Positions 1,866 to 46,264 are shown, counted from the first letter of the stretch. The stretch: 64,000 nt of DNA from Escherichia coli (GCF_022846255.1 NZ_AP025682.1); one strand, 5' to 3'. Program-made: numbers and translations. The notes: generated from the sequence alone by a model not told the origin.

Positions 1866-1928
1866 GCATTAATGCTCAGCGTCCTGCCTCATCTCTCTTA
1901 GGCAGGACACGCACTAACAGGAGGTTTC

Positions 1929-2402
1929 ATGCGTCTTTTTGGCAAAGTGGCAGAATTTAGTGCTGCCTTTGCGCTATTCGTTCTGGTTGTGGTGACAATT
2001 GGAGCGGTATTTATGCGTTATTTCATCGGCCAACCGCTTCAATGGACAGAAGAAATGTCGGGAATGCTGATGATTTGGGTGGTGATGTTAGGTGGAGTGG
2101 TGGCGGAACGTGACAGGGCGCACCTGACCATTCCCTTCCTGATGGAGATGCTTCCAGGCAAACTCAGGCGTGTTATTGCAGTACTGGTCGCCCTTCTCTC
2201 CATCGCACTGCTGCTTTATATGGCCTGGCTGGGCTACCGACTAGCCGAAATGGCGCAGTTTAAAGTGACACAAATTCTGAAGGTTTCCTGGTTCTGGATC
2301 GATCTGGCGGTCCCTGTCGGCGCACTGGCAACGGCTATTTATACCCTCTACTGGTTAATAAACGATACAAAACAATCCGATAGCGGAGACAAAATGCAAT
2401 GA
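1929..2402 (+). CDS. TRAP transporter small permease (DctQ family)
   Basis: 157 aa hydrophobic protein with about 4 TM segments; AGGAGG RBS; stop overlaps start of downstream large permease. Confidence 0.7.
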   Translation: MRLFGKVAEFSAAFALFVLVVVTIGAVFMRYFIGQPLQWTEEMSGMLMIWVVMLGGVVAERDRAHLTIPFLMEMLPGKLRRVIAVLVALLSIALLLYMAWLGYRLAEMAQFKVTQILKVSWFWIDLAVPVGALATAIYTLYWLINDTKQSDSGDKMQ

Positions 2403-3670: not shown

Positions 3671-3680
3671 TAATAAAAAC

Positions 3681-3703
3681 GCCGGATGAAATACTCATCC
3701 GGC
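3681..3703. terminator. Stem-loop between convergent dctM-like and tsr genes (GCCGGATGA / TCATCCGGC, 9-bp stem)
   Basis: Perfect 9-bp inverted repeat with 5-nt loop sitting between two convergent stop codons; flanks only moderately A/T rich. Confidence 0.45.
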
Positions 3704-3712
3704 ATCATTACG

Positions 3713-5377
3713 TTAAAACGTTTCCCAGTTCTCCTCGCTATCTGCCACGGCCATTTTGCGCGGCGTAGCTGGCGTCACGGTTTTTACCACAGCCGATGCT
3801 TCACGCTGCTGTTGCTGCTGTTGCTGAATCCGGAACACTGCCACTGCTTCGGTCAGGCGACTGGCCTGCTCTTCCAGCGCGGCGGCGGCGGCGGCAGATT
3901 CTTCCACCAGCGCGGCGTTCTGTTGAGTTACCCGGTCCATCTCAGCAACCGCTAAGCCAACCTGATCGATACCACGGCTCTGCTCATCAGAAGCAGAAGC
4001 AATTTCGCCCATAATGTCCGTCACGCGGGTCACGGCACTGACAATCTCCGCCATTGTTTCCCCTGCGCTTTCGACCAGCGTAGAGCCAACATCTACTTTC
4101 CCCACCGAGTCTTCAATCAGGCTTTTAATTTCACGAGCCGCCTGAGCGCTGCGCTGGGCCAGATTACGCACTTCACCCGCGACCACCGCAAAACCGCGCC
4201 CTTGCTCACCCGCGCGCGCTGCTTCAACCGCCGCGTTCAAAGCCAGAATATTGGTCTGGAAGGCAATGCCGTCAATTACGCTGATAATATCGGCGATTTT
4301 CTGCGAACTGGTGGAGATATCGCGCATAGTCTGCACCACGTTATCTACCACTTTGCCGCCGCGTTGCGCCGTTTCAGAAGCACTTAACGCCAGGTGGCTG
4401 GCCTGGCGCGCATTTTCGGCGTTCTGCTTCACCGTTGCGGTCAGTTGCTCCATGCTGGCTGCCGTCTCTTCCAGCGAAGCGGCCTGTTGCTCGGTGCGCG
4501 AAGAGAGATCGTTATTGCCGGTAGCGATTTCGCTGGCACCGCTATAGATGGCATTGGCCCCGTTGCGCACATCACCGACGGTACGCATCAGCTCTCCCTG
4601 CATATGGCGCAAACTCTCAGCCAGTTGCCCCATCTCATTAGAGCCATCCACCTCAATCGGTTTCACCAGATCGCCGCCTGCAATATGACGAATGCTGTCA
4701 ATCAGGCGATTCATTGGCGCTACCAACGAGGCTTTAATACCGAACCAGACGGCGAAGATGACCGCCAGTACGACGATCATCACGCCCACCAGAATCCACA
4801 TCGCCTGGCTGTAGGAGGCATTGTTATCGCTGACGGCGATATCATAGAGCCGATCGTTTTGCTCCATGTAAGCCACATACTGCTTCTCGAAACCGTCCTG
4901 ATATCCCTGGGTCGGCTGATCAAAGAACTCGTTGATTTTGCCTGCACCTAACAGTTGGATCAGCTCCGCCAGCGCATTGTGATAAATATCGTAATTACGT
5001 TTGATCTCTGCCGCTGCGGCGGTGCTCTGACGCGGGTCACGCGGCAACGCTTCGTAATCCGCCCAGTTTTTTTCCGCCTGTTTCAGCGAAATACTGGCAC
5101 TCTGCATCAGCTCAGCAACGGTTGAACCGCTACCAATATTATTCTGATCCATCATGTAGCGGATACCCGCGCGGTTGAGGGTGTTACGCGTCTGCAACAA
5201 CGCGACCCAGCTGCCATTCAGCGTGGATTGCTGCTGGCGAATGGTTTGTAAAACAGTGAAATTTTCTTTGTCATTCTTTAAGGCATTAAAGAACAGACCG
5301 CCTGATGTCAGTTGTAAAAGGCCAAAAACGGCCAAAACCAGCAGTAAGCTGGTCACGATCTTGATACGTTTTAACAT
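3713..5377 (-). CDS. tsr: Methyl-accepting chemotaxis protein I (serine chemoreceptor)
   Basis: 554 aa; matches recalled Tsr sequence essentially throughout, including 2 TM segments, HAMP, methylation helices and C-terminal NWETF pentapeptide. Confidence 0.95.
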
Positions 5378-5407
5378 GGTTTCTCTTTCCTGTGGACCGA
5401 TGCAAGA

Positions 5408-5434
5408 TTTTCGGCCTGGAAAGGAAAAACTTTA
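5408..5434 (-). promoter_or_regulatory. Candidate sigma-28 (FliA) promoter for tsr
   Basis: Minus-strand reads TAAAGTTT-N11-GCCGAAAA, close to the FliA consensus TAAAGTTT-N11-GCCGATAA, about 30 bp upstream of the tsr ATG; tsr is a class III flagellar-regulon gene. Confidence 0.55.
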
Positions 5435-5495
5435 TGAAAAGGTGTAACCCGCCATCCATGGAAAAACCAGGCGCTGGTTATCAGATATTAAAAAG

Positions 5496-5942
5496 TTATT
5501 CATTATCGCCCGGAATGTCTTCTTGTCGGGAATTACCCAGAGCAATAAATTCCTCTAACAGATGGGTTAACTGTTGCATTTTCTCGGCAGTAAACTGAGC
5601 TTCAATCTGCCGATAGGCTTCTTCAATCTGTGTCTGAGCGCGGTTATACAGGGCCTGCCCCTCTTTGGTCAGCGAGATATAGAGCTTCCGCTGATCATTG
5701 ATCGGCTTTAATCGCAACACTAAACCGTCGCGTTCCATCCTCGTGAGGATCCCGGTCAGGCTTGGGCGCAAAATGCAGGCGCGATACGCCAGATCGTGAA
5801 AATCCATTGATGGGCTTTCCGCCAGAATACGCACGATGCGCCACTGTTGCTCAGTCAAATTATGCCGTTTAACGATTGGGCGAAAATAACTCATCGCCGC
5901 TTCTCGCGCCTGGAGCAACGCAATGGTTAGTGAGTCGTGCAT
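5496..5942 (-). CDS. hpaR: MarR-family repressor of the hpa meta-cleavage operon
   Basis: About 148 aa from internal Met MHDSLTIALLQ of the ORF; MarR-like winged helix; divergent from hpaG as in the E. coli W/B/C hpa cluster. Confidence 0.8.
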   Translation of the reverse strand: MHDSLTIALLQAREAAMSYFRPIVKRHNLTEQQWRIVRILAESPSMDFHDLAYRACILRPSLTGILTRMERDGLVLRLKPINDQRKLYISLTKEGQALYNRAQTQIEEAYRQIEAQFTAEKMQQLTHLLEEFIALGNSRQEDIPGDNE

Positions 5943-6091
5943 TATCTTTCCCCTGAAAAATTCAAAATCATTAATATAGAAACAGTTAATCGTCACGTTA
6001 CCGGGACTGAGCTATCCCCGCAATTCCTCATTTTATCAAAATTGAGCATACTTTATTAACTTACTGATATTTAGTATTTTATTACCTGCAA

Positions 6092-6126
6092 ATGTAAATA
6101 GTTTGTTAATTAGATCACATTTACAT
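6092..6126. promoter_or_regulatory. Inverted repeat ATGTAAAT...ATTTACAT in hpaR-hpaG divergent promoter region (candidate HpaR operator)
   Basis: 8-bp arms in inverted orientation separated by about 19 bp inside the AT-rich intergenic region between divergent hpaR and hpaG. Confidence 0.3.
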
Positions 6127-6213
6127 CACTTACTTTTGCCAAACTACGCAATCGGGAATAAAAGTAATCATTAACATATTAATGATTAAAATGATCGAAT
6201 CCGAGGAGTGGTA

Positions 6214-7503
6214 ATGAAAGGCACTATCTTCGCCGTAGCGTTGAACCATCGCAGCCAGCTTGATGCATGGCAGGAAGCGTTCCAGCAATCCCCCTACAAA
6301 GCCCCGCCTAAAACTGCGGTCTGGTTTATTAAACCGCGCAATACGGTGATTGGTTGCGGTGAACCGATTCCCTTTCCACAGGGTGAAAAGGTACTGAGCG
6401 GTGCGACAGTTGCGCTGATTGTGGGAAAAACGGCGACGAAAGTACGTGAAGAAGATGCGGCAGAGTACATCGCCGGATATGCGCTGGCTAACGACGTCAG
6501 CCTGCCGGAAGAGAGCTTTTACCGCCCGGCAATCAAAGCAAAATGTCGTGATGGATTCTGCCCCATTGGCGAAACCGTGGCTCTCAGCAATGTCGATAAT
6601 CTGACCATCTATACCGAGATCAACGGGCGTCCTGCCGATCACTGGAACACCGCCGATTTACAACGTAATGCCGCGCAGTTGCTGAGCGCCCTGAGCGAAT
6701 TTGCCACGCTGAATCCAGGCGATGCCATTCTGCTCGGCACGCCACAGGCGCGCGTGGAAATACAGCCAGGCGATCGCGTTCGTGTTCTCGCAGAAGGTTT
6801 CCCGCCACTGGAAAATCCGGTAGTGGACGAACGTGAAGTGACCACGCGCAAGAGCTTCCCAACGCAGCCACACCCGCACGGCACGCTGTTTGCCCTCGGC
6901 CTGAACTACGCCGACCACGCCAGCGAACTGGAATTTAAGCCACCGGAAGAACCGCTGGTGTTCCTGAAAGCGCCGAATACCCTCACGGGCGATAACCAGA
7001 CCTCCGTGCGCCCGAACAATATTGAATACATGCACTACGAAGCGGAGCTGGTGGTAGTTATTGGCAAGCAGGCGCGTAACGTCAGCGAAGCCGATGCCAT
7101 GGATTATGTCGCGGGCTACACCGTGTGTAACGACTACGCCATTCGCGACTATCTGGAAAACTACTACCGCCCTAACCTGCGGGTAAAAAGCCGCGACGGA
7201 CTGACGCCGATGCTTTTAACCATCGTGCCGAAAGAGGCGATCCCGGACCCGCATAATCTGACCCTTCGCACCTTCGTCAACGGCGAGTTACGCCAGCAAG
7301 GCACCACCGCCGATCTGAACTTCAGCGTGCCCTTCCTGATCGCCTACTTAAGCGAATTTATGACCCTGAATCCGGGCGACATGATCGCCACCGGCACACC
7401 AAAAGGCTTATCTGACGTGGTGCCTGGCGATGAAGTAGTGGTGGAAGTCGAAGGCGTGGGCCGCCTGGTGAACCGAATTGTGAGTGAGGAAACAGCGAAA
7501 TGA
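6214..7503 (+). CDS. hpaG: Bifunctional 5-oxopent-3-ene-1,2,5-tricarboxylate decarboxylase / 2-hydroxyhepta-2,4-diene-1,7-dioate isomerase (tandem FAH domains)
   Basis: About 429 aa from ATG at 6214 preceded by GAGGAG RBS; two tandem FAH-like halves; first gene of hpaGEDFHI order. Confidence 0.85.
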   Translation: MKGTIFAVALNHRSQLDAWQEAFQQSPYKAPPKTAVWFIKPRNTVIGCGEPIPFPQGEKVLSGATVALIVGKTATKVREEDAAEYIAGYALANDVSLPEESFYRPAIKAKCRDGFCPIGETVALSNVDNLTIYTEINGRPADHWNTADLQRNAAQLLSALSEFATLNPGDAILLGTPQARVEIQPGDRVRVLAEGFPPLENPVVDEREVTTRKSFPTQPHPHGTLFALGLNYADHASELEFKPPEEPLVFLKAPNTLTGDNQTSVRPNNIEYMHYEAELVVVIGKQARNVSEADAMDYVAGYTVCNDYAIRDYLENYYRPNLRVKSRDGLTPMLLTIVPKEAIPDPHNLTLRTFVNGELRQQGTTADLNFSVPFLIAYLSEFMTLNPGDMIATGTPKGLSDVVPGDEVVVEVEGVGRLVNRIVSEETAK

Positions 7504-8966
7504 AAAAAGTAAATCATTGGATCAACGGCAAAAATGTTGCAGGTAACGACTACTTCCAGACTACCAATCCGGCAACGGGTGAAGTGCTGGCGGATGTGGC
7601 CTCTGGCGGTGAAGCGGAGATCAATCAGGCGGTAGCGGCAGCGAAAGAGGCGTTCCCGAAATGGGCCAATCTGCCGATGAAAGAGCGTGCGCGCCTGATG
7701 CGCCGTCTGGGCGATTTGATCGACCAGAACGTGCCTGAGATCGCCGCGATGGAAACCGCGGACACGGGCCTGCCGATCCATCAGACCAAAAATGTGTTGA
7801 TCCCACGCGCTTCTCACAACTTTGAATTTTTCGCGGAAGTCTGCCAGCAGATGAACGGCAAGACCTATCCGGTTGACGACAAGATGCTCAACTACACGCT
7901 GGTGCAACCGGTAGGCGTTTGTGCGCTGGTGTCACCGTGGAACGTGCCGTTTATGACCGCCACATGGAAGGTCGCGCCGTGTCTTGCGCTGGGCAATACC
8001 GCGGTGCTGAAGATGTCGGAACTCTCCCCGCTGACCGCTGACCGCCTGGGTGAGCTGGCGCTGGAAGCCGGTATTCCGGCAGGCGTGCTGAACGTGGTAC
8101 AGGGCTACGGCGCAACCGCAGGGGATGCGCTGGTTCGTCATCATGACGTACGTGCCGTGTCGTTCACCGGCGGTACGGCCACCGGGCGCAACATCATGAA
8201 AAAAGCCGGGCTGAAAAAATACTCCATGGAACTGGGCGGTAAATCGCCGGTGCTGATTTTTGAAGATGCTGATATTGAACGCGCGCTGGACGCCGCCCTG
8301 TTCACCATCTTCTCGATCAACGGCGAGCGCTGCACCGCCGGTTCGCGCATCTTTATTCAGCAAAGCATCTACCCGGAATTCGTTAAACGCTTTGCCGAAC
8401 GCGCCAACCGTCTGCGCGTGGGCGATCCGAATGATCCGAATACCCAGGTTGGGGCGCTTATCAGCCAGCAACACTGGGAAAAAGTCTCCGGCTATATCCG
8501 TCTCGGCATTGAAGAAGGCGCAACCCTGCTGGCGGGCGGTCCGGATAAACCGTCCGACCTGCCTGCGCACCTGAAAGGCGGCAACTTCCTGCGCCCAACG
8601 GTGCTGGCTGACGTTGATAACCGTATGCGCGTCGCCCAGGAAGAGATTTTCGGGCCGGTCGCCTGCCTGCTGCCGTTTAAAGATGAAGCCGAAGGCTTAC
8701 GCCTGGCAAACGACGTGGAGTACGGCCTCGCGTCGTACATCTGGACGCAGGATGTCAGCAAAGTGTTACGCCTGGCGCGTGGCATTGAAGCAGGCATGGT
8801 GTTCGTCAACACCCAGAACGTGCGCGACCTGCGCCAGCCGTTTGGCGGCGTAAAAGCCTCCGGCACCGGGCGTGAAGGCGGTGAGTACAGCTTCGAAGTG
8901 TTCGCGGAAATGAAGAACGTCTGCATTTCCATGGGCGACCATCCAATTCCGAAATGGGGAGTCTGA
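7500..8966 (+). CDS. hpaE: 5-carboxymethyl-2-hydroxymuconate semialdehyde dehydrogenase (aldehyde dehydrogenase family)
   Basis: 488 aa; aldehyde dehydrogenase hallmarks (ELGGKSP, cysteine active-site region); ATGA overlap with hpaG. Confidence 0.9.
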   Translation: MKKVNHWINGKNVAGNDYFQTTNPATGEVLADVASGGEAEINQAVAAAKEAFPKWANLPMKERARLMRRLGDLIDQNVPEIAAMETADTGLPIHQTKNVLIPRASHNFEFFAEVCQQMNGKTYPVDDKMLNYTLVQPVGVCALVSPWNVPFMTATWKVAPCLALGNTAVLKMSELSPLTADRLGELALEAGIPAGVLNVVQGYGATAGDALVRHHDVRAVSFTGGTATGRNIMKKAGLKKYSMELGGKSPVLIFEDADIERALDAALFTIFSINGERCTAGSRIFIQQSIYPEFVKRFAERANRLRVGDPNDPNTQVGALISQQHWEKVSGYIRLGIEEGATLLAGGPDKPSDLPAHLKGGNFLRPTVLADVDNRMRVAQEEIFGPVACLLPFKDEAEGLRLANDVEYGLASYIWTQDVSKVLRLARGIEAGMVFVNTQNVRDLRQPFGGVKASGTGREGGEYSFEVFAEMKNVCISMGDHPIPKWGV

Positions 8967-8967
8967 T

Positions 8968-9819
8968 ATGGGTAAGTTAGCGTTAGCCGCCAAGATCACG
9001 CACGTACCGTCGATGTATCTCTCTGAACTGCCAGGGAAAAACCACGGTTGCCGCCAGGGCGCGATCGACGGGCATAAAGAGATCAGCAAGCGTTGCCGGG
9101 AAATGGGCGTCGATACCATTATCGTTTTCGATACTCACTGGCTGGTCAACAGTGCTTATCACATCAACTGTGCAGACCATTTTGAAGGCGTCTACACCAG
9201 CAACGAGCTGCCGCATTTTATTCGTGACATGACCTACAACTACGAGGGCAACCCGGAGTTGGGGCAGCTAATTGCCGATGAAGCGATAAAACTCGGCGTG
9301 CGGGCGAAAGCGCACAACATTCCCAGCCTGAAACTGGAATACGGCACGCTGGTGCCAATGCGCTACATGAATGAAGACAAGCACTTCAAAGTGGTTTCCA
9401 TTTCGGCTTTCTGCACGGTTCACGATTTTGCCGACAGCCGCAAGCTGGGCGAAGCGATTCTGAAAGCGATCGAACAGTACGACGGCACCGTGGCGGTCCT
9501 TGCCAGCGGTTCGTTATCGCACCGCTTTATTGACGATCAGCGTGCGGAAGAAGGGATGAACAGCTACACCCGCGAGTTCGACCGCCAGATGGACGAGCGC
9601 GTGGTGAAGCTGTGGCGCGAAGGCCAGTTCAAAGAGTTCTGCAATATGCTGCCGGAGTACGCCGACTACTGCTACGGCGAAGGCAATATGCACGACACGG
9701 TGATGCTGCTGGGGATGCTCGGCTGGGATAAATACGACGGCAAGGTGGAGTTTATCACCGAGCTGTTCCCAAGCTCCGGTACTGGTCAGGTTAACGCTGT
9801 TTTCCCGCTTCCCGCGTAA
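8968..9819 (+). CDS. hpaD: 3,4-dihydroxyphenylacetate 2,3-dioxygenase (extradiol dioxygenase)
   Basis: 283 aa; position and size match hpaD in the hpa meta-cleavage operon. Confidence 0.85.
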   Translation: MGKLALAAKITHVPSMYLSELPGKNHGCRQGAIDGHKEISKRCREMGVDTIIVFDTHWLVNSAYHINCADHFEGVYTSNELPHFIRDMTYNYEGNPELGQLIADEAIKLGVRAKAHNIPSLKLEYGTLVPMRYMNEDKHFKVVSISAFCTVHDFADSRKLGEAILKAIEQYDGTVAVLASGSLSHRFIDDQRAEEGMNSYTREFDRQMDERVVKLWREGQFKEFCNMLPEYADYCYGEGNMHDTVMLLGMLGWDKYDGKVEFITELFPSSGTGQVNAVFPLPA

Positions 9820-9828
9820 GGAACCACC

Positions 9829-10209
9829 ATGCCGCACTTTATCGTGGAATGTACTGAAAATATTCGTCAAGAAGCCCGCTTACCTGAGCTGTTTGCCAGT
9901 GTTAACACCGCACTGGCAGCGACGGGGATTTTTCCGCTTGGGGGAATACGTAGCCGGGCACACTGGATCGATACCTGGCAAATGGCTGATGGCAAGCACG
10001 ATTACGCCTTTGTGCATATGACGCTAAAAATCGGCAGCGGGCGCAGTCTGGAAAGCCGTCAGGAAGTGGGCGAAATGCTGTTTGATCTGATTAAAACGCA
10101 CTTCGCCTCACTGATGGAGAGCCGTTACCTGGCGCTTTCATTTGAGATTGCAGAGCTGCACCCGACGTTGAATTTCAAACAGAACAACGTACACGCGTTG
10201 TTTAAATAA
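9829..10209 (+). CDS. hpaF: 5-carboxymethyl-2-hydroxymuconate isomerase
   Basis: 126 aa starting [12 protein letters not shown]; size and operon position consistent with HpaF. Confidence 0.85.
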
Positions 10210-10227
10210 ATTTGCACCAGCTTCCAG

Positions 10228-10257
10228 GCCGGATGATAAGGCGCAGCCGCATCCGGC
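10228..10257. repeat. REP-like palindrome (GCCGGATG...CATCCGGC) between hpaF and hpaH
   Basis: Inverted repeat of GCCGGATG arms resembling enterobacterial REP elements. Confidence 0.4.
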
Positions 10258-10276
10258 AATGCCACAGGATATCGCT

Positions 10277-11080
10277 ATGTTCGATAAACATACCCACACC
10301 CTGATCGCCCAGCGTCTGGATCAGGCAGAAAAACAGCGCGAACAGATCCGCGCGATCTCCCTGGATTACCCGGAGATCACCATCGAAGACGCTTACGCGG
10401 TGCAGCGCGAATGGGTTCGCCTGAAAATCGCCGAAGGCCGTACGCTGAAAGGCCACAAAATCGGACTGACCTCGAAAGCGATGCAGGCCAGCTCACAAAT
10501 CAGCGAACCAGATTACGGTGCACTGCTGGACGACATGTTCTTCCACGACGGCAGCGATATCCCGACCGATCGCTTTATCGTGCCGCGCATTGAAGTGGAG
10601 CTGGCTTTCGTGCTGGCAAAACCGCTGCGTGGGCCAAACTGCACGCTGTTCGACGTCTACAACGCCACGGACTATGTGATCCCGGCGCTGGAGCTGATCG
10701 ACGCTCGCTGCCACAACATCGATCCGGAAACCCAGCGCCCGCGTAAAGTGTTCGACACCATTTCTGATAACGCCGCCAATGCCGGGGTGATCCTCGGTGG
10801 TCGTCCCATTAAGCCCGATGAGTTGGATCTACGTTGGATCTCCGCCCTGATGTATCGCAATGGCGTGATTGAAGAAACCGGCGTCGCCGCTGGCGTGCTG
10901 AATCACCCGGCAAACGGCGTGGCCTGGCTGGCGAACAAACTCGCACCGTATGACGTACAACTGGAAGCCGGGCAAATCATTCTCGGTGGTTCGTTCACCC
11001 GCCCGGTTCCGGCGCGTAAGGGCGACACCTTCCACGTCGATTACGGCAACATGGGCTCCATTAGCTGCCGCTTTGTTTAA
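10277..11080 (+). CDS. hpaH: 2-oxo-hept-4-ene-1,7-dioate hydratase
   Basis: About 267 aa from MFDKHTHT; hydratase of the hpa pathway by position and size. Confidence 0.85.
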
Positions 11081-11090
11081 GGAGAGAACG

Positions 11091-11879
11091 ATGGAAAACA
11101 GTTTTAAAGCGGCGCTGAAAGCAGGCCGCCCGCAGATCGGATTATGGCTGGGGCTAAGTAGCAGCTACAGCGCAGAGTTACTGGCCGGAGCAGGATTCGA
11201 CTGGTTATTGATCGACGGTGAGCACGCGCCGAACAACGTGCAAACCGTGCTCACCCAGCTACAGGCGATTGCGCCCTACCCCAGCCAGCCGGTAGTGCGC
11301 CCATCCTGGAACGATCCGGTGCAAATCAAACAACTGCTGGATGTCGGTACACAAACCTTACTGGTGCCGATGGTACAAAACGCCGACGAAGCCCGTGAAG
11401 CGGTACGCGCCACCCGTTATCCCCCCGCCGGTATTCGTGGTGTGGGCAGTGCGCTGGCCCGCGCCTCGCGCTGGAACCGTATTCCGGATTACCTGCAAAA
11501 AGCCAACGATCAAATGTGCGTGCTGGTGCAGATCGAAACTCGTGAGGCAATGAAGAACCTACCGCAGATTCTGGACGTGGAAGGGGTAGACGGCGTGTTT
11601 ATCGGCCCGGCGGATCTGAGCGCCGATATGGGTTATGCCGGTAATCCGCAGCACCCGGAAGTGCAGGCCGCCATTGAACAGGCGATCGTGCAGATCCGTG
11701 AAGCGGGCAAAGCTCCGGGGATCCTGATCGCCAATGAGCAACTGGCAAAACGCTACCTGGAACTGGGCGCGCTATTTGTCGCCGTCGGCGTTGACACCAC
11801 CCTGCTCGCCCGCGCCGCCGAAGCGCTGGCAGCACGGTTTGGTGCTCAGGCCACCGCCGTGAAGCCCGGCGTGTATTAA
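11091..11879 (+). CDS. hpaI: 4-hydroxy-2-oxo-heptane-1,7-dioate aldolase (HpcH/HpaI aldolase family)
   Basis: 262 aa from [19 protein letters not shown] with GGAGAG RBS; class II aldolase family pattern. Confidence 0.85.
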
Positions 11880-11952
11880 TGCCGGATGCGCTTATCCGGT
11901 TTACAGCAGTACCAAATTGTAGCCGGATAAGGCGTTTGTGCTGCATCCGCCA
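11880..11952. repeat. REP element cluster (BIME-like) downstream of hpaI
   Basis: GCCGGATGCGCTTATCCGG and TAGCCGGATAAGGCG...GCATCCGCC palindromic units typical of REP sequences. Confidence 0.5.
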
Positions 11953-11996
11953 TAAACCTTGTCGTACCCTACAAAAATCCCATTAGAGGAAGAAAA

Positions 11997-13373
11997 ATGA
12001 GCGACACCTCACCTGCCATACCGGAGAGTATCGATCCGGCGAATCAGCATAAAGCGCTGACTGCCGGACAACAGGCGGTTATTAAGAAGTTGTTTCGCCG
12101 CCTGATCGTCTTTCTGTTCGTGCTGTTTATCTTCTCGTTCCTTGATCGCATCAACATTGGTTTTGCTGGACTAACGATGGGACGCGACCTCGGTCTGAGC
12201 GCCACCATGTTTGGCCTCGCTACCACCCTGTTCTACGCCGCTTATGTCATCTTCGGCATTCCCAGCAACATTATGCTGAGTATTGTCGGTGCGCGGCGCT
12301 GGATCGCCACCATCATGGTGCTCTGGGGCATCGCCTCTACGGCCACCATGTTTGCCACTGGCCCCACCAGCTTATACGTACTGCGTATACTGGTTGGCAT
12401 TACCGAAGCCGGCTTTCTGCCTGGTATTCTGCTGTATTTAACCTTCTGGTTTCCGGCCTATTTCCGCGCCCGTGCCAACGCCTTGTTTATGGTAGCAATG
12501 CCGGTAACGACAGCGCTGGGATCTATCGTTTCCGGCTACATTTTGTCGCTGGATGGCGTAATGGCATTAAAAGGCTGGCAGTGGCTGTTTTTGCTGGAAG
12601 GCTTCCCGTCGGTATTACTCGGCGTCATGGTGTGGTTCTGGCTTGATGACTCACCGGACAAAGCTAAGTGGCTGACGAAAGAAGACAAAAAATGCCTGCA
12701 AGAGATGATGGATAACGATCGTCTGACGCTGGTTCAGCCAGAGGGAGCCATCAGTCACCACGCCATGCAACAACGCAGCATGTGGCGGGAGATCTTCACT
12801 CCGGTGGTGATGATGTATACCCTGGCGTATTTCTGCCTGACCAACACACTTAGTGCAATCAGCATCTGGACACCGCAGATCCTGCAAAGCTTTAATCAGG
12901 GTAGCAGTAATATCACCATCGGCCTGCTGGCCGCCGTACCGCAGATTTGTACCATTCTCGGGATGATCTACTGGAGCCGTCACTCAGATCGCCGCCAGGA
13001 ACGAAGGCATCACACCGCCCTTCCTTATTTGTTCGCTGCCGCTGGTTGGTTACTGGCTTCGGCAACTGATCACAACATGATCCAGATGCTGGGGATCATT
13101 ATGGCTTCGACCGGATCATTCAGCGCAATGGCGATTTTCTGGACAACACCGGATCAGTCCATCAGCCTGCGGGCACGAGCGATCGGTATTGCGGTGATCA
13201 ACGCCACTGGCAACATTGGTTCAGCGTTAAGTCCGTTTATGATCGGCTGGTTGAAAGATCTGACCGGCAGCTTTAACAGTGGATTGTGGTTTGTTGCCGC
13301 GCTGCTGGTGATTGGTGCGGGGATTATCTGGGCAATTCCAATGCAGTCCTCCCGTCCGCGAGCGACCCCGTAA
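11997..13373 (+). CDS. hpaX: 4-hydroxyphenylacetate permease (MFS transporter)
   Basis: 458 aa 12-TM MFS-like protein located between hpaI and hpaA as in the described hpa cluster. Confidence 0.85.
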   Translation: MSDTSPAIPESIDPANQHKALTAGQQAVIKKLFRRLIVFLFVLFIFSFLDRINIGFAGLTMGRDLGLSATMFGLATTLFYAAYVIFGIPSNIMLSIVGARRWIATIMVLWGIASTATMFATGPTSLYVLRILVGITEAGFLPGILLYLTFWFPAYFRARANALFMVAMPVTTALGSIVSGYILSLDGVMALKGWQWLFLLEGFPSVLLGVMVWFWLDDSPDKAKWLTKEDKKCLQEMMDNDRLTLVQPEGAISHHAMQQRSMWREIFTPVVMMYTLAYFCLTNTLSAISIWTPQILQSFNQGSSNITIGLLAAVPQICTILGMIYWSRHSDRRQERRHHTALPYLFAAAGWLLASATDHNMIQMLGIIMASTGSFSAMAIFWTTPDQSISLRARAIGIAVINATGNIGSALSPFMIGWLKDLTGSFNSGLWFVAALLVIGAGIIWAIPMQSSRPRATP

Positions 13374-13382
13374 GGAACGACG

Positions 13383-14273
13383 ATGTGCGATAGTCAGATT
13401 GCCAATATTGATATCAGCAAAGAGTACGATGAAAGCCTGGGCACGGACGATGTGCATTATCAGTCCTTCGCCCGCATGGCGGCCTTTTTTGGCCGCCATA
13501 TGCTGCCACATCGCCACGAACAGTACTTTCAGATGCATTTCCTCAATAGCGGACAGATTGAGCTACAGCTTGACGATCATCGCTACTCGGTGGAAGCGCC
13601 CCTGTTTGTCCTGACGCCGCCGTCAGTACCTCATGCGTTTATTACGGAGTCTGACGCCGACGGTCATGTGTTGACGGTACGGGAAGATCTGATCTGGCCC
13701 CTGCTGGAAGTTCTTTATCCGGGCACTCGGGAAACCTTCGGCCTGCCGGGGATTTGCCTGTCACTGGCAGATAAACCCGACGAACTGGCAGCGCTGGAAC
13801 ACTATTGGCAACTGATAGAGCGGGAATCGGTAGAACAACTGCCTGGACGGGAACACACCCTGACGCTACTAGCACAGGCAGTATTCACCCTACTGCTGCG
13901 TAATGCAAAACTCGACGACCATGCCGCCAGCGGGATGCGCGGAGAATTAAAACTGTTCCAGCGTTTTAATATGCTGATTGAAAGCCATTTTCATCAGCAC
14001 TGGACGGTACCGGATTACGCTAACGAACTGCATATCACCGAATCACGACTCACCGACATCTGCCGCCGCTTTGCCAACCGTCCGCCAAAACGGTTGATTT
14101 TCGACAGGCAGCTACGAGAAGCCAAGCGGCTGCTGCTGTTTTCTGATAACGCCGTGAACAATATTGCCTGGCAACTCGGTTTTAAGGATCCGGCTTATTT
14201 TGCGCGCTTTTTTAATCGCTTAGTCGGTTGCTCGCCCAGTGCTTATCGCGCCAAAAAAGTACCTGTGACGTGA
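13383..14273 (+). CDS. hpaA: AraC/XylS-family activator of hpaBC
   Basis: 296 aa; C-terminal AraC-type HTH region; immediately upstream of hpaBC. Confidence 0.85.
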   Translation: MCDSQIANIDISKEYDESLGTDDVHYQSFARMAAFFGRHMLPHRHEQYFQMHFLNSGQIELQLDDHRYSVEAPLFVLTPPSVPHAFITESDADGHVLTVREDLIWPLLEVLYPGTRETFGLPGICLSLADKPDELAALEHYWQLIERESVEQLPGREHTLTLLAQAVFTLLLRNAKLDDHAASGMRGELKLFQRFNMLIESHFHQHWTVPDYANELHITESRLTDICRRFANRPPKRLIFDRQLREAKRLLLFSDNAVNNIAWQLGFKDPAYFARFFNRLVGCSPSAYRAKKVPVT

Positions 14274-14523
14274 AAATCCCTTAGCCTTAACGGGAAACCA
14301 GGCACCACCTGCTATTCCCCTTTCTCCGCCTGGAGCAAGGGGATTTAGTAACGTTAAAAATCGCGAAAAGCGACCTCGATCACAAAACCGTACCCGACCT
14401 GAAAAGTACCAGCCATTGTCCCAAAAGTGTCTTCCCGTAATCGCCCCTGCAAGCTTCAATTGAATAACAAAAACAACACACAAAATTAACAATCATATTC
14501 CGATTAATACTGTAGAGGTCGAT

Positions 14524-16086
14524 ATGAAACCAGAAGATTTCCGCGCCAGTACCCAACGTCCGTTCACCGGGGAAGAGTATCTGAAAAGCCTGCAGGATGG
14601 TCGCGAGATCTATATCTATGGCGAGCGAGTGAAAGACGTCACCACTCATCCGGCATTTCGTAATGCGGCAGCGTCTGTTGCCCAACTGTACGACGCGCTG
14701 CACAAACCGGAGATGCAGGACTCTCTGTGTTGGAACACCGACACCGGCAGCGGCGGCTATACCCATAAATTCTTCCGCGTGGCGAAAAGTGCCGACGACC
14801 TGCGCCAGCAACGCGACGCCATCGCTGAATGGTCACGCCTGAGCTATGGCTGGATGGGCCGTACCCCAGACTACAAAGCCGCTTTCGGTTGCGCACTGGG
14901 CGCAAATCCGGGCTTTTACGGTCAGTTCGAGCAGAACGCCCGTAACTGGTACACCCGTATTCAGGAAACTGGCCTCTACTTTAACCACGCGATTGTTAAC
15001 CCACCGATTGATCGTCATTTGCCGACCGATAAAGTGAAAGACGTTTACATCAAGCTGGAAAAAGAGACTGACGCCGGGATTATCGTCAGCGGTGCGAAAG
15101 TGGTTGCCACCAACTCGGCGCTGACTCACTACAACATGATTGGCTTCGGCTCGGCACAAGTGATGGGCGAAAACCCGGACTTCGCACTGATGTTCGTTGC
15201 GCCAATGGATGCCGATGGCGTGAAATTAATCTCCCGCGCCTCTTATGAGATGGTCGCGGGTGCTACCGGCTCGCCATACGACTACCCGCTCTCCAGCCGC
15301 TTCGATGAGAACGATGCGATCCTGGTGATGGATAACGTACTGATCCCGTGGGAAAACGTGTTGATCTACCGCGATTTCGATCGCTGCCGTCGCTGGACGA
15401 TGGAAGGCGGTTTCGCCCGTATGTATCCGCTGCAAGCCTGTGTGCGCCTGGCAGTGAAATTAGACTTCATTACGGCACTGCTGAAAAAATCACTCGAATG
15501 TACCGGCACCCTGGAGTTCCGTGGCGTGCAGGCCGATCTCGGTGAAGTGGTGGCGTGGCGCAACACCTTCTGGGCATTGAGTGACTCGATGTGTTCAGAA
15601 GCAACGCCGTGGGTCAACGGGGCTTATTTACCGGATCATGCCGCACTGCAAACCTATCGCGTACTGGCACCAATGGCCTACGCGAAGATCAAAAACATTA
15701 TCGAACGCAACGTTACCAGTGGCCTGATCTATCTCCCTTCCAGTGCCCGTGACCTGAACAATCCGCAGATCGACCAGTATCTGGCGAAGTATGTGCGCGG
15801 TTCGAACGGTATGGATCACGTCCAGCGCATCAAGATCCTCAAACTGATGTGGGATGCTATTGGCAGCGAATTTGGTGGTCGTCACGAGCTGTATGAAATC
15901 AACTACTCCGGTAGCCAGGATGAGATTCGCCTGCAGTGTCTGCGTCAGGCACAAAGCTCCGGCAATATGGACAAGATGATGGCGATGGTTGATCGCTGCC
16001 TGTCGGAATACGACCAGAACGGCTGGACTGTGCCGCACCTGCACAACAACGACGATATCAACATGCTGGATAAGCTGCTGAAATAA
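14524..16086 (+). CDS. hpaB: 4-hydroxyphenylacetate 3-monooxygenase, oxygenase component
   Basis: 520 aa; matches the two-component flavin-dependent HpaB family in size and operon context. Confidence 0.9.
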   Translation: MKPEDFRASTQRPFTGEEYLKSLQDGREIYIYGERVKDVTTHPAFRNAAASVAQLYDALHKPEMQDSLCWNTDTGSGGYTHKFFRVAKSADDLRQQRDAIAEWSRLSYGWMGRTPDYKAAFGCALGANPGFYGQFEQNARNWYTRIQETGLYFNHAIVNPPIDRHLPTDKVKDVYIKLEKETDAGIIVSGAKVVATNSALTHYNMIGFGSAQVMGENPDFALMFVAPMDADGVKLISRASYEMVAGATGSPYDYPLSSRFDENDAILVMDNVLIPWENVLIYRDFDRCRRWTMEGGFARMYPLQACVRLAVKLDFITALLKKSLECTGTLEFRGVQADLGEVVAWRNTFWALSDSMCSEATPWVNGAYLPDHAALQTYRVLAPMAYAKIKNIIERNVTSGLIYLPSSARDLNNPQIDQYLAKYVRGSNGMDHVQRIKILKLMWDAIGSEFGGRHELYEINYSGSQDEIRLQCLRQAQSSGNMDKMMAMVDRCLSEYDQNGWTVPHLHNNDDINMLDKLLK

Positions 16087-16103
16087 CGCAGCAGGAGGTT
16101 AAG

Positions 16104-16616
16104 ATGCAATTAGATGAACAACGCCTGCGCTTTCGTGACGCAATGGCCAGCCTGTCGGCAGCGGTAAATATTATCACCACCGAGGGCGACGCCGGGCAAT
16201 GCGGGATTACGGCAACGGCTGTCTGCTCGGTCACGGATACACCACCGTCGCTGATGGTGTGCATTAACGCCAACAGTGCGATGAACCCGGTTTTTCAGGG
16301 CAACGGTAAGTTGTGCGTCAACGTCCTCAACCATGAGCAGGAACTGATGGCACGCCACTTCGCGGGCATGACAGGCATGGCGATGGAAGAGCGTTTTAGC
16401 CTCTCATGCTGGCAAAAAGGTCCGCTGGCGCAGCCGGTGCTGAAAGGTTCGCTGGCCAGTCTTGAAGGTGAGATCCGCGATGTGCAGGCGATTGGCACAC
16501 ATCTGGTGTATCTGGTGGAGATTAAAAACATCATCCTCAGTGCAGAAGGTCACGGACTTATCTACTTTAAACGCCGTTTCCATCCGGTGATGCTGGAAAT
16601 GGAAGCTGCGATTTAA
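16104..16616 (+). CDS. hpaC: 4-hydroxyphenylacetate 3-monooxygenase, flavin reductase component
   Basis: 170 aa flavin reductase-like protein directly downstream of hpaB with AGGAGG RBS. Confidence 0.9.
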   Translation: MQLDEQRLRFRDAMASLSAAVNIITTEGDAGQCGITATAVCSVTDTPPSLMVCINANSAMNPVFQGNGKLCVNVLNHEQELMARHFAGMTGMAMEERFSLSCWQKGPLAQPVLKGSLASLEGEIRDVQAIGTHLVYLVEIKNIILSAEGHGLIYFKRRFHPVMLEMEAAI

Positions 16617-16622
16617 GCTCCA

Positions 16623-16658
16623 GCCCCTTCACGTATTCGTCGAAGGGGCATTTTTATT
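16623..16658 (+). terminator. Rho-independent terminator after hpaC
   Basis: GCCCCTTC...GAAGGGGC stem followed by ATTTTTATT run. Confidence 0.6.
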
Positions 16659-16701
16659 GTGATCTCAATCACATATCCACCCGATGAATAATTCTTGCCC
16701 A

Positions 16702-16750
16702 ACCGCTCACCGCCATTCCTGACCGCTTACATCCCTAAAATAACCACTCA
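16702..16750 (+). promoter_or_regulatory. Three direct repeats ACC(G/A)CT(C/T)A spaced about 21 bp upstream of btsT (LytTR-type BtsR/YehT binding motif)
   Basis: ACCGCTCA (16702), ACCGCTTA (16722), ACCACTCA (16743); matches the described YehT/BtsR recognition motif of direct repeats with 13-bp spacer. Confidence 0.55.
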
Positions 16751-16885: not shown

Positions 16886-19036
16886 ATGGATACTAAAAAG
16901 ATATTCAAGCACATACCCTGGGTGATTCTTGGAATCATCGGTGCATTCTGCCTAGCGGTAGTTGCATTACGTCGGGGGGAGCACGTCAGTGCCCTGTGGA
17001 TCGTGGTCGCCTCTGTGTCAGTGTATCTGGTGGCTTATCGCTACTACAGTCTGTACATCGCCCAGAAGGTAATGAAACTCGACCCCACGCGCGCGACGCC
17101 TGCGGTTATTAACAACGACGGTCTGAACTATGTTCCGACCAACCGTTACGTGTTGTTTGGTCACCACTTCGCCGCTATCGCCGGTGCTGGTCCGCTGGTT
17201 GGTCCGGTTCTCGCCGCGCAGATGGGCTACCTGCCAGGTACGCTGTGGCTGCTGGCGGGGGTAGTGCTGGCCGGTGCGGTACAGGACTTTATGGTGCTGT
17301 TTATCTCCTCTCGCCGTAATGGCGCATCTCTTGGTGAGATGATCAAAGAAGAGATGGGGCCAGTACCGGGGACTATCGCGCTGTTTGGCTGTTTCTTAAT
17401 CATGATCATCATCCTCGCCGTCCTGGCGCTGATTGTGGTTAAAGCCCTGGCCGAAAGTCCGTGGGGTGTCTTCACCGTTTGCTCAACCGTACCGATTGCG
17501 CTGTTTATGGGTATCTACATGCGCTTTATTCGTCCGGGGCGTGTGGGTGAAGTCTCTGTCATTGGTATCGTGCTGCTGGTTGCCTCTATCTACTTCGGTG
17601 GCGTGATTGCTCACGATCCGTACTGGGGTCCGGCACTGACCTTTAAAGACACCACCATTACCTTCGCGCTGATTGGCTATGCGTTTGTTTCCGCACTGCT
17701 GCCAGTGTGGCTGATCCTCGCACCACGCGACTATCTGGCAACCTTCCTGAAAATCGGCGTTATCGTCGGCCTGGCGCTGGGTATCGTGGTGCTGAACCCG
17801 GAACTGAAAATGCCTGCGATGACCCAGTACATTGACGGTACTGGCCCGCTGTGGAAAGGCGCTCTGTTCCCGTTCCTGTTCATCACCATCGCCTGTGGTG
17901 CGGTATCTGGCTTCCACGCGCTGATCTCTTCCGGTACGACGCCGAAACTGCTGGCTAACGAAACCGACGCGCGTTTCATTGGCTACGGCGCAATGCTGAT
18001 GGAGTCCTTCGTGGCGATTATGGCGCTGGTTGCTGCGTCCATCATCGAACCGGGTCTTTACTTCGCGATGAATACCCCGCCTGCGGGCCTTGGCATCACC
18101 ATGCCTAACCTGCATGAAATGGGTGGCGAGAACGCGCCGATCATCATGGCGCAGCTGAAAGACGTTACCGCACACGCGGCAGCGACTGTCAGCTCCTGGG
18201 GCTTCGTGATTTCGCCAGAGCAGATCCTGCAAACCGCGAAAGACATTGGTGAGCCTTCTGTCCTGAACCGTGCAGGTGGTGCGCCGACGCTGGCGGTAGG
18301 TATCGCTCACGTGTTCCACAAAGTGCTGCCGATGGCTGACATGGGCTTCTGGTATCACTTCGGTATTCTGTTCGAAGCCCTGTTCATCCTGACCGCGCTG
18401 GATGCGGGTACCCGTTCTGGCCGCTTTATGCTGCAAGACCTGTTGGGTAACTTCGTGCCGTTCCTGAAAAAAACCGACTCTCTGGTTGCCGGTATCATCG
18501 GTACTGCGGGCTGTGTGGGTCTGTGGGGCTACCTGCTGTATCAGGGCGTGGTCGATCCGCTGGGCGGCGTTAAGAGCCTGTGGCCGCTGTTCGGTATCTC
18601 CAACCAGATGCTGGCAGCCGTAGCGCTGGTACTGGGCACCGTTGTGCTGATTAAGATGAAGCGCACCCAATACATCTGGGTAACTGTTGTTCCGGCTGTA
18701 TGGCTGCTTATCTGCACCACCTGGGCGCTGGGCCTGAAACTGTTCAGTACCAACCCGCAGATGGAAGGCTTCTTCTACATGGCAAGCCAGTACAAAGAGA
18801 AGATTGCTAACGGTACTGACCTGACGGCGCAGCAGATTGCCAACATGAACCACATCGTTGTGAACAACTACACCAACGCAGGCCTGAGTATTCTGTTCCT
18901 GATTGTGGTGTACAGTATCATCTTCTACGGTTTCAAAACCTGGCTGAAGGTGCGTAACAGCGACAAACGTACTGACAAAGAAACTCCGTACGTTCCAATC
19001 CCGGAAGGCGGCGTGAAGATCTCTTCGCACCACTAA
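16886..19036 (+). CDS. btsT: CstA-family pyruvate/H+ symporter
   Basis: About 716 aa from MDTKKIFKHIPWVILG; polytopic CstA-like transporter; followed by yjiX-yjiA as in E. coli. Confidence 0.9.
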   Translation: MDTKKIFKHIPWVILGIIGAFCLAVVALRRGEHVSALWIVVASVSVYLVAYRYYSLYIAQKVMKLDPTRATPAVINNDGLNYVPTNRYVLFGHHFAAIAGAGPLVGPVLAAQMGYLPGTLWLLAGVVLAGAVQDFMVLFISSRRNGASLGEMIKEEMGPVPGTIALFGCFLIMIIILAVLALIVVKALAESPWGVFTVCSTVPIALFMGIYMRFIRPGRVGEVSVIGIVLLVASIYFGGVIAHDPYWGPALTFKDTTITFALIGYAFVSALLPVWLILAPRDYLATFLKIGVIVGLALGIVVLNPELKMPAMTQYIDGTGPLWKGALFPFLFITIACGAVSGFHALISSGTTPKLLANETDARFIGYGAMLMESFVAIMALVAASIIEPGLYFAMNTPPAGLGITMPNLHEMGGENAPIIMAQLKDVTAHAAATVSSWGFVISPEQILQTAKDIGEPSVLNRAGGAPTLAVGIAHVFHKVLPMADMGFWYHFGILFEALFILTALDAGTRSGRFMLQDLLGNFVPFLKKTDSLVAGIIGTAGCVGLWGYLLYQGVVDPLGGVKSLWPLFGISNQMLAAVALVLGTVVLIKMKRTQYIWVTVVPAVWLLICTTWALGLKLFSTNPQMEGFFYMASQYKEKIANGTDLTAQQIANMNHIVVNNYTNAGLSILFLIVVYSIIFYGFKTWLKVRNSDKRTDKETPYVPIPEGGVKISSHH

Positions 19037-46178: not shown

Positions 46179-46264
46179 CATTATTCTGCAAAACATGGAA
46201 TTTTGACATTAACGCCGGATGGAGATTAATCCATCCGGCAAACGCATTTATTATCTTGAATAAC

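Follow-up and report, generated by a model that had tools for sequence, protein, structure and literature searches.

A complete hydroxyphenylacetate degradation cluster between tsr and btsT of Escherichia coli, with the K-12-type absence better read as loss

The stretch of Escherichia coli DNA analysed here (64,000 nucleotides of NZ_AP025682.1, assembly GCF_022846255.1; hereafter, the window) carries an eleven-gene 3-/4-hydroxyphenylacetate (3-/4-HPA) degradation cluster that, judged from its sequence, is complete and intact and is of a kind already known in E. coli. Very probably, it is the chromosomal hpa gene set that serves to degrade 4- and 3-hydroxyphenylacetate aerobically, located at its ancestral position, and its absence from K-12-type strains represents an old loss or replacement allele. 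As a catabolic cluster it is textbook material that had been recognised correctly, and not a discovery.

Gene content of the hpa cluster

The cluster consists of hpaR, hpaGEDFHI, hpaX, hpaA and hpaBC, all intact, in an order (hpaR and hpaGEDFHI divergently oriented, then hpaX, hpaA and hpaBC) that is collinear with those of E. coli W, C325 and strain 144. Each of the 11 open reading frames starts with ATG, has one terminal stop and matches its E. coli W counterpart in length; all 11 protein products score above the cut-offs of NCBIfam equivalog models.

On the minus strand, hpaR (5496–5942) encodes a MarR-family repressor of the meta-cleavage operon (TIGR02337 HpaR, 201 bits vs a cut-off of 121). 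The remaining genes are all on the plus strand. Those of the meta-cleavage operon are hpaG for the bifunctional isomerase/decarboxylase (6214–7503; NF011750, 972.8 bits vs 811), hpaE for 5-carboxymethyl-2-hydroxymuconate semialdehyde dehydrogenase (7500–8966; TIGR02299, 738 bits vs 638), hpaD for 3,4-dihydroxyphenylacetate 2,3-dioxygenase (8968–9819; TIGR02298, 549.6 bits vs 316), hpaF for 5-carboxymethyl-2-hydroxymuconate isomerase (9829–10209; NF011605, 263.5 bits vs 215), hpaH for 2-oxo-hept-4-ene-1,7-dioate hydratase (10277–11080; TIGR02312, 464.7 bits vs 351.5) and hpaI for 4-hydroxy-2-oxoheptanedioate aldolase (11091–11879; TIGR02311, 433.8 bits vs 368.8). They are followed by hpaX for the MFS 4-hydroxyphenylacetate permease (11997–13373; TIGR02332, 893.9 bits vs 615), hpaA for the AraC-family activator of hpaBC (13383–14273; TIGR02297, 390 bits vs 275), hpaB for the oxygenase component of 4-HPA 3-monooxygenase (14524–16086; TIGR02310, 1109.6 bits vs 885) and hpaC for its flavin reductase component (16104–16616; NF012030, 385.6 bits vs 315). 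Residue 379 of HpaB, as read from the window sequence, is Arg; R379 has been tied to the use of 3-HPA (PMC7201708). This residue and the identity of HpaB to the W protein are indirect evidence that the cluster may allow growth on 3-HPA and 4-HPA.

The E. coli W locus (NC_017635.1, 4841054–4852274), whose hpa cluster is cited as GenBank Z37980 in PMC7180172, shares with the window the eleven genes, their order, orientation and lengths, and the position between tsr and btsT. Compared with it, the window shows no rearrangement, and every gene is present and unbroken. The sequence-only reading, which had named an eleven-gene hpa cluster and its presence in E. coli W, is thus borne out by the equivalog matches, the collinearity and the W genome locus; presence in E. 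coli B and C is described in the literature (PMC7201708). Nucleotide identity to W is 96.6–99.0% in 10 of the 11 genes, with HpaR, HpaH, HpaB and HpaC identical at the protein level and HpaG differing at three amino acids. The exception is hpaF, which is only 80.3% identical, with 20 of 126 residues different, W carrying another allele class. Two hpaF classes exist, approximately 20% apart; the window has the commoner one, and its hpaF is ∼ 93–98% identical to those of strains C325 and 144 (200-bp bins).

There are differences in the extragenic parts as well: the hpaF–hpaH spacer holds one REP in the window and two in E. coli W (+43 bp), the hpaI–hpaX spacer holds two REP-like units in the window and three in W and C325 (+56 bp), and a 123-bp ERIC-like element upstream of btsT in E. 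coli W is absent from the window. To the left of tsr, there is a TRAP transporter gene in the window, whereas E. coli W has lgoT.

Boundaries of the variable segment

The cluster is flanked on the left by tsr, for the serine chemoreceptor (3713–5377, minus strand; NF011615, 1224.9 bits vs a cut-off of 947, and so annotated in matching genomes), and on the right by btsT (yjiY), for the pyruvate/H+ symporter (16886–19036, plus strand). The latter is assigned from the annotation of matching genomes; BtsT also matches the CstA-family model NF011590, with a score under the cut-off set for this model. Gene annotation thus agrees with the previously proposed position between tsr and btsT.

Relative to K-12, the additional DNA runs from 5439 to approximately 16657, with the left breakpoint at 5438/5439. 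The interval given earlier, 5943–16658, does contain ten of the genes, but its left coordinate is wrong and leaves out hpaR, because 5943 directly follows the start codon of hpaR (5940–5942, CAT on the plus strand); 5439–16657 is therefore a useful correction.

Both edges adjoin promoter-like sequences. The left breakpoint is located 3–4 bp upstream of a sigma-28-type promoter-like element for tsr, TAAAGTTT-N11-GCCGAAAA (5408–5434, minus strand), recognised by its match to the sigma-28 consensus; it is conserved throughout the E. coli alleles, and likewise in Enterobacter, Lelliottia and Leclercia. On the right, the predicted btsT promoter contains a direct repeat, ACCGCTCA ... ACCGCTTA (16702–16729, plus strand), which is conserved across genera and presumably represents the BtsR boxes. 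It is preceded by the putative CRP site TGTGATCTCAATCACA (16658–16673, plus strand), whose half-sites are common to all three E. coli spacer alleles (see below) and to other genera. The variable segment is framed by the sigma-28-like promoter of tsr and the CRP-like site of btsT. Control of btsT by CRP (PMC7730263) and conservation of the BtsR motif across genera (PMC5552118) have been described.

Spacer alleles in E. coli

The absence of the cluster from K-12, also part of the sequence-only reading, is evident in MG1655, which has no hpa genes and a tsr–btsT spacer of 377 bp (NC_000913.3, 4591280–4591656). This spacer is identical to the window on the tsr promoter side up to 5438 and in the btsT promoter from ∼ 16715 on, and shares the CRP-like half-sites. 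It diverges over a 40-bp patch that follows the CRP-like site (16674 to ∼ 16714) and has an 88-bp filler unrelated to hpa in place of the 11.2 kb. The filler does not significantly resemble the left or right end of the cluster, nor any of the fetched loci. The proposed loss is therefore more than a simple deletion between two points.

Of the 5,426 complete E. coli genomes, ∼ 38% (2,019–2,063) are hpa-positive, 51–57% carry the K-12 filler and 7% carry a third, 776-bp filler. The hpa-negative genomes examined have one common junction and one common filler; between K-12 and strains 1105, NGF1 and A33, the 88-bp sequence differs by five substitutions and one indel. In the latter three strains the promoter patch is a hybrid and hints at a recombination breakpoint. 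The hpa, 88-bp and 776-bp alleles probably all persist within E. coli, with homologous recombination in the conserved flanking DNA redistributing them.

Tentatively, and with somewhat less than even confidence, the locus could be viewed as an ancient three-allele replacement polymorphism (11.2-kb hpa, 88-bp and AT-rich 776-bp) that was maintained across the diversification of E. coli, with its edges pinned by the two promoters and possibly under balancing selection that acts on aromatic-acid degradation in the gut; the two hpaF classes, one of them Pseudocitrobacter-like, would then point to repeated inter-genus gene flow into an otherwise vertically inherited locus. The three spacer alleles, the two hpaF classes and the exchange with Pseudocitrobacter are small leads for E. 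coli accessory-genome dynamics and leave the identity and function of the cluster unchanged.

How the cluster came to be in this particular strain is a separate matter. It could be ancestral to the species and yet have been regained here recently, by homologous recombination from another hpa-positive E. coli, the closest sequenced relatives being hpa-negative. The left flank (window positions 1–5400) is indeed 99.4–99.5% identical to those of the hpa-negative strains 1105, NGF1 and A33, whereas the best complete-genome match of the cluster is merely 98.3% and btsT is 1.7–2.0% away from every strain compared, so that divergence shifts along the region. There was, however, no donor-like hpa allele with at least 99% identity among the 5,426 genomes, so that no sign is seen of a recent import out of any sequenced lineage. 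The pattern would be just as well explained if the strain belonged to a poorly sampled lineage in which the cluster was simply retained, and we consider a recent regain unlikely.

Synteny in other genera and the origin of the K-12 state

The case for an ancestral position comes from other genera. We kept 80 HpaI-encoding loci from species-representative genomes and found hpaC adjacent to btsT in 20 of them, with yjiX and yjiA coming next in 19; tsr adjoins hpaR in 11 of the 80. The loci with either adjacency include those of Enterobacter, Lelliottia, Leclercia, Pseudocitrobacter, Klebsiella, Raoultella and a divergent Escherichia, the last with 92.6% nucleotide identity. The entire arrangement tsr-hpaR...hpaC-btsT-yjiX-yjiA recurs in Enterobacter, Lelliottia, Pseudocitrobacter and the divergent Escherichia, and the hpaC–btsT junction is also found in Klebsiella and Raoultella. 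Gene order is shared, at ∼ 77–88% nucleotide identity, with Enterobacter cloacae (loci L012 and L013), Lelliottia (L019), Pseudocitrobacter (L008 and L010) and Klebsiella (L020, L023 and L024). Many enterobacterial hpa loci, like the window, have tsr on the left and btsT-yjiX-yjiA on the right with conserved btsT promoter motifs, which lie directly 3' of the hpaC region in all these genera.

The conservation is not uniform. Klebsiella and some other genera have no full-length HpaG match, HpaX of other Enterobacteriaceae falls into two classes with ∼ 90% and ∼ 70% amino acid identity, and the spacers of enterobacterial hpa loci contain repeats different from those of the window. In Salmonella arizonae (L031), hpaBC is inverted and located to the left of hpaR, and there is no btsT nearby. 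The meta-cleavage operon of Pseudocitrobacter is unusually similar to that of E. coli; taken with the hpaF classes, it indicates exchange between genera and an inheritance that was not purely vertical.

The cluster is about as diverged as its flanks. At fourfold sites, divergence from Enterobacter, Lelliottia, Klebsiella and Citrobacter is 0.34–0.58 for hpa and 0.30–0.52 for tsr, btsT, yjiX and yjiA; within E. coli, the respective values are 0.065–0.079 for hpa and 0.02–0.08 for the flanks. The GC content of the segment (54.4%) matches those of tsr (54.6%) and btsT-yjiA (54.9%), and the GC3 values overlap. There is no tRNA gene in positions 1–24000 of the window, the two junctions share no k-mer of at least 8 bp (i.e. 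there is no flanking direct repeat), and the eleven cluster proteins, all of them Hpa catabolic, transport or regulatory proteins, include no integrase or transposase. The plasmid and phage collections contained no genuine plasmid or phage copy of the cluster; full-length matches in the plasmid collection came from very large records (0.37–4.8 Mb), 16 of the 19 matching records being typed as non-mobilizable, and look like chromosomal sequence.

These observations bear on the earlier description of the cluster as an inserted island, according to which it was horizontally acquired into an empty tsr–btsT spacer and K-12 retains the ancestral empty site. The cluster is indeed present in only ∼ 38% of complete E. 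coli genomes, was not found in representative genomes of other named Escherichia species, and the empty-site allele is the commonest one. The presence/absence polymorphism is nevertheless explained equally well by loss, and the description is not supported on the other counts: several genera share both the flanks and the cluster at equal divergence, there is neither a compositional anomaly nor a hallmark of mobility, the supposedly empty site holds 88 bp unrelated to the hpa allele, and the promoter patch beside hpaC is closer to those of other genera than the K-12 patch is. An island is accordingly improbable; a segment is not one merely for being present where K-12 lacks it.

Because of the shared synteny, flank-like divergence, matching GC content and lack of a tRNA, integrase or flanking repeat, we infer that K-12 carries a loss allele, and its state is better read as derived than as ancestral. 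Loss as the explanation for the absence of hpa from K-12 has been suggested before (PMC7201708). The ancestral enterobacterial position of the cluster would be between the tsr and btsT promoters, and the K-12-type hpa-negative state would be an old loss or replacement that exchanged 11.2 kb for an unrelated 88-bp filler. Of the Escherichia species representatives, a single one yielded HpaI, and the others are therefore apparently without the cluster; an early loss in Escherichia may have been followed by re-acquisition.

Regulatory elements and predicted function

The pathway roles of the Hpa proteins are established knowledge, applied here from sequence alone. The substrate would be imported by HpaX and hydroxylated to homoprotocatechuate by HpaB and HpaC (oxygenase and flavin reductase, respectively), with hpaBC activated by the AraC-family HpaA. 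Meta-cleavage by HpaD, HpaE, HpaF, HpaG, HpaH and HpaI is then expected to yield pyruvate and succinic semialdehyde. Until an inducer is present, the MarR-family HpaR would repress the divergent hpaGEDFHI via two TTAA-N4-TTAA operators.

A search for repeats and inverted repeats placed two HpaR-operator-like sites, 200 bp apart, in the divergent hpaR/hpaG regulatory region (5943–6213), one at 5966–5989 and the other, the perfect palindrome TAATCATTAA-N4-TTAATGATTA, at 6165–6188. HpaR sites of the form TTAA-N4-TTAA have been described in E. coli W and Yersinia (PMC7180172). The hpaA–hpaB spacer (14274–14523, plus strand) is the predicted hpaBC promoter region, a role assigned to it by literature cited in the same paper (PMC7180172).

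Starting seven bases past the hpaC stop, where the DNA absent from K-12 ends on the right, is the predicted intrinsic terminator of hpaBC (16623–16658, plus strand), a GC-rich hairpin GCCCCTTC...GAAGGGGC followed by the T-run ATTTTTATT. Its computed fold has an energy of −19.1 kcal/mol (z = −4.38; 0 of 200 shuffled sequences fold as well), in agreement with the terminator earlier proposed at these positions; a simple terminator scan missed it because the loop is long and bulged. Downstream of hpaR, AACCAGCGCCTGGTTTTT (5462–5479, minus strand) reads as a terminator-like hairpin, although the computed fold does not pair it as a simple hairpin.

A single REP with the perfect-arm palindrome GCCGGATGATAAGGCGCAGCCGCATCCGGC is found in the hpaF–hpaH spacer (10228–10257, minus strand); by chance, 0 occurrences of this pattern would be expected and 2 were found in a scan of the window. 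Two degenerate REP-like units, a BIME-like pair, occupy the hpaI–hpaX spacer (11880–11952), which folds barely better than shuffled sequence (z = −1.97). Positions 10228–10257 and 11920–11951 align to the Y-type REP consensus. REP elements had been placed at 10228–10257 and 11880–11952 before, correctly as to position; they do not bound the cluster, both being internal to it, on either side of hpaH–hpaI in the meta-cleavage region.

It is highly improbable that this strain carries the cluster in a silent or non-functional state, e.g. through regulatory decay. The REP units are fewer here than in E. coli W, and one 200-bp bin of the hpaR–hpaG regulatory region is just 92.5% identical to W. The regulatory region nevertheless has 99.5% identity to its counterpart in strain 144, neither the operator palindromes nor the terminator is damaged, and the eleven full-length open reading frames show 0–3 amino acid changes relative to W, except for hpaF with its commoner allele class. 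The REPs within the long operon and the strong hairpin after hpaC would be ordinary transcript punctuation.

Gene content of the hpa cluster

The genes between tsr (3713–5377, minus strand) and btsT (16886–19036, plus strand) are hpaR (5496–5942, minus strand) and, all on the plus strand, hpaG (6214–7503), hpaE (7500–8966), hpaD (8968–9819), hpaF (9829–10209), hpaH (10277–11080), hpaI (11091–11879), hpaX (11997–13373), hpaA (13383–14273), hpaB (14524–16086) and hpaC (16104–16616). Each of the 11 products exceeds the curated cut-off of its own NCBIfam equivalog model, and all are catabolic, transport or regulatory Hpa proteins. Gene order, orientation and the lengths of all 11 ORFs are the same as in Escherichia coli W (NC_017635.1), and alignment to that strain therefore reveals neither a missing gene nor a rearrangement. 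The equivalog assignments and this collinearity bear out the sequence-only reading, which had correctly identified the region as the eleven-gene hpa cluster, that is, as known biology. Its start coordinate, 5943, needs correction: it lies one base past the hpaR start codon (CAT on the plus strand, 5940–5942), and the interval therefore contains ten genes, not eleven.

With the exception of hpaF (80.3% identical, 20 of 126 residues different, fourfold-site divergence 0.42), the genes of the window share 96.6–99.0% nucleotide identity with those of E. coli W and differ by 0–3 amino acids. HpaB is the same protein in both strains; the window protein has Arg at residue 379, which has been tied to the use of 3-hydroxyphenylacetate besides 4-hydroxyphenylacetate (PMC7201708). 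The other background papers used were PMC7180172, PMC3446290, PMC7730263 and PMC5552118.

Ancestry of the locus

A scan of species-representative genomes for HpaI yielded 80 loci that were kept, and the window proteins were mapped onto them. The full arrangement tsr(−)-hpaR(−)-hpaGEDFHI-X-A-BC-btsT-yjiX-yjiA was found in six Enterobacter loci, in Lelliottia, in Pseudocitrobacter faecalis and in a strain labelled Citrobacter sp. 18056. In 20 of the 80 loci, including those of Klebsiella and Raoultella, btsT directly follows hpaC, with yjiX and yjiA next in all but one of the 20; tsr adjoins hpaR in 11 of the 80, among them a divergent Escherichia (locus L007, 92.6% nucleotide identity). Fourfold-site divergence of Enterobacter, Lelliottia, Klebsiella and Citrobacter from the window is 0.34–0.58 for the hpa genes and 0.30–0.52 for tsr, btsT, yjiX and yjiA; within E. 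coli the corresponding values are 0.065–0.079 for hpa and 0.02–0.08 for the flanks. The G+C content of the segment (54.4%) is like that of tsr (54.6%) and of btsT–yjiA (54.9%). A tRNA search found none, and comparison of the two junctions revealed no shared repeat of 8 bp or more.

A mobile cluster was considered and rejected on the same absence of a tRNA and of a junction repeat and on the database matches: the full-length ones in the plasmid collection are very large records (0.37–4.8 Mb) resembling chromosomal sequence, 16 of the 19 plasmid records with a match are typed as non-mobilizable, and the phage matches are two short unannotated fragments. The description of the cluster as inserted is not supported: the shared synteny, the flank-like divergence and G+C content and the absence of mobility traits are the signature of a region inherited with its neighbours and not of an inserted island. 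Such inheritance fits the proposal, passed on in PMC7201708, that the cluster was lost from K-12. A more complex history may apply, in which hpa was lost early in Escherichia and later regained, given that the scan found HpaI in just one Escherichia species representative.

Boundaries of the variable segment

In the alignment with K-12 MG1655, shared sequence stops at 5438 (...CTTTATGAA) and returns at 16658, at a TGTGAT-N6-ATCACA motif, so that K-12 has 88 bp where the window has 11.2 kb; to the right of this motif, a patch diverged between the two reaches ∼ 16714. On the left, the breakpoint falls 3–4 bp upstream of an element of tsr that resembles a sigma-28-type promoter (TAAAGTTT-N11-GCCGAAAA, minus strand, 5408–5434); all E. 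coli alleles, as well as other genera, have kept this element. On the right, the segment ends with the hpaC terminator, immediately next to a CRP-like site (16658–16673); 3′ of this site, a direct repeat, ACCGCTCA/ACCGCTTA (16702–16729), is kept across genera. Control of btsT by CRP and BtsS/BtsR has been reported (PMC7730263), as has conservation of the BtsR motif across genera (PMC5552118). With the tsr element at its left edge and the btsT motifs at its right, the variable DNA spans promoter to promoter and thus occupies the stretch between two divergent promoters, the assignment of individual motifs to these factors being putative.

Alleles of the tsr–btsT spacer in E. coli

Among 5,426 complete E. 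coli genomes, the 11.2-kb hpa cluster is found in 2,019–2,063 (about 38%), an 88-bp K-12-type filler in 2,752–3,119 (51–57%) and a 776-bp filler that is AT-rich and contains a disrupted ORF in 363 (6.7%). The K-12 filler could not be derived from either end of the cluster, its local alignment scores being no better than those of shuffled filler, and it matched none of the fetched loci. The loss of hpa is not a simple two-point deletion. Between K-12 and the hpa-negative strains 1105, NGF1 and A33, the filler differs by five substitutions and one indel, a divergence similar to that at fourfold sites of btsT in the same strains (0.041–0.046), which points to an old loss allele and not to a recent one.

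The promoter patch of 1105, NGF1 and A33 is a hybrid, K-12-like through GCCGCTCA and window-like afterwards, which suggests a recombination breakpoint. The left flank of the window is 99.4–99.5% identical to that of these three hpa-negative strains, while the best identity of its hpa cluster to any complete genome is 98.3%; therefore, the tsr–btsT region of the window is a mosaic, and its lineage may either have kept the cluster or have regained it through recombination.

The third allele, represented by E. coli BHD6 (locus L004, 359–1134), is the counterpart of window positions 5439–16657. It contains an ORF of ∼ 180 codons interrupted by a stop, and nearly all of its 363 copies are at least 99% identical. 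A Pfam search with the pseudo-ORF gave no match, and the allele showed no similarity to the other fetched loci.

hpaF classes and exchange between genera

The hpaF genes of E. coli form two allele classes that differ by about 20% in nucleotide sequence (window 9765–10234; comparison locus L006, 22561–22941), which split the hpa-positive complete genomes almost evenly (W-type, 987; window-type, 1,083). The idea that the window carries a foreign hpaF was rejected: it is the W-type allele that resembles hpaF of Pseudocitrobacter (93% identical), and the divergent Escherichia L007 has an hpaF 96% identical to the window-type allele. Judged by these identities, W is the strain with an unusual hpaF.

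In the Pseudocitrobacter loci compared (P. vendiensis L010, 4261–10869, and L008 and L009), hpaG, hpaE, hpaD, hpaH and hpaI share 91–96% nucleotide identity with E. coli, with a fourfold-site divergence of 0.13–0.25; the values are 0.43–0.51 for hpaR, hpaX, hpaA and hpaC and 0.31–0.41 for the flanking btsT, yjiX and yjiA. The hpaF classes and the low divergence of these five P. vendiensis genes show that some exchange between genera has reached the meta-cleavage operon, and the latter suggests gene flow of this operon between Pseudocitrobacter and E. coli. Across the Enterobacteriaceae (L012–L050), HpaX forms two classes of identity to the window protein, about 88–92% and about 68–72%, a split that does not track genus cleanly.

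Repeats, terminator and candidate operators

The REP elements proposed to bound the cluster were found where they had been placed and are internal to it, in the hpaF–hpaH and hpaI–hpaX spacers. The first is an exact palindrome (10228–10257), of a pattern expected zero times in shuffled sequence, that aligns to the Y-type REP consensus; the second site (11880–11952) holds two degenerate REP-like units. E. coli W has one REP more than the window in each spacer (43 bp and 56 bp, respectively). A second perfect-arm palindrome with the GCCGGATG...CATCCGGC pattern of the one at 10228–10257, GCCGGATGGAGATTAATCCATCCGGC, lies at 46214–46239.

W, C325 and strain 144 carry a 123-bp element 18 bp upstream of the btsT start codon (L005, 14490–14612, also in L001 and L006; insertion point 16867/16868 of the window) that the window and K-12 lack. 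Its core, GTGAATCCCCGGGAGCTTAC...AGTAAGTGACAGGGGTGAACG, matches the ERIC primer sequences, and the element is hence ERIC-like.

The terminator at 16623–16658 is supported by folding of its T-run hairpin (−19.1 kcal/mol, z = −4.4), although a simple terminator scan did not list it because its loop is longer than the limit of the scan. No RNA family was found when the whole window was scanned against Rfam at the gathering threshold. The hpaR–hpaG spacer contains a perfect palindrome, TAATCATTAA-N4-TTAATGATTA (6165–6188), with a related copy 200 bp upstream (5966–5989); both match the TTAA-N4-TTAA sites of HpaR described in E. coli W and Yersinia (PMC7180172) and are candidate operators.

Surrounding regions of the window

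To the left of tsr (1–3670), the window holds the beginning of a Na+/H+ antiporter gene, a spacer of 690 bp at 33% G+C (204–893) and a three-gene TRAP transporter (894–3670), whereas K-12 and W have lgoT at the place of these genes; this part is covered to at least 80% in only 862 of the 5,426 genomes. To the right of yjiA (20000–44000) lie type I restriction-modification genes, a GmrSD-domain gene, yjiN, yjiR and others. The best complete genome matches this part with 95.6% identity across 96% of its length, and only 114 genomes cover at least 80% of it; it probably represents a variable restriction/defence region.
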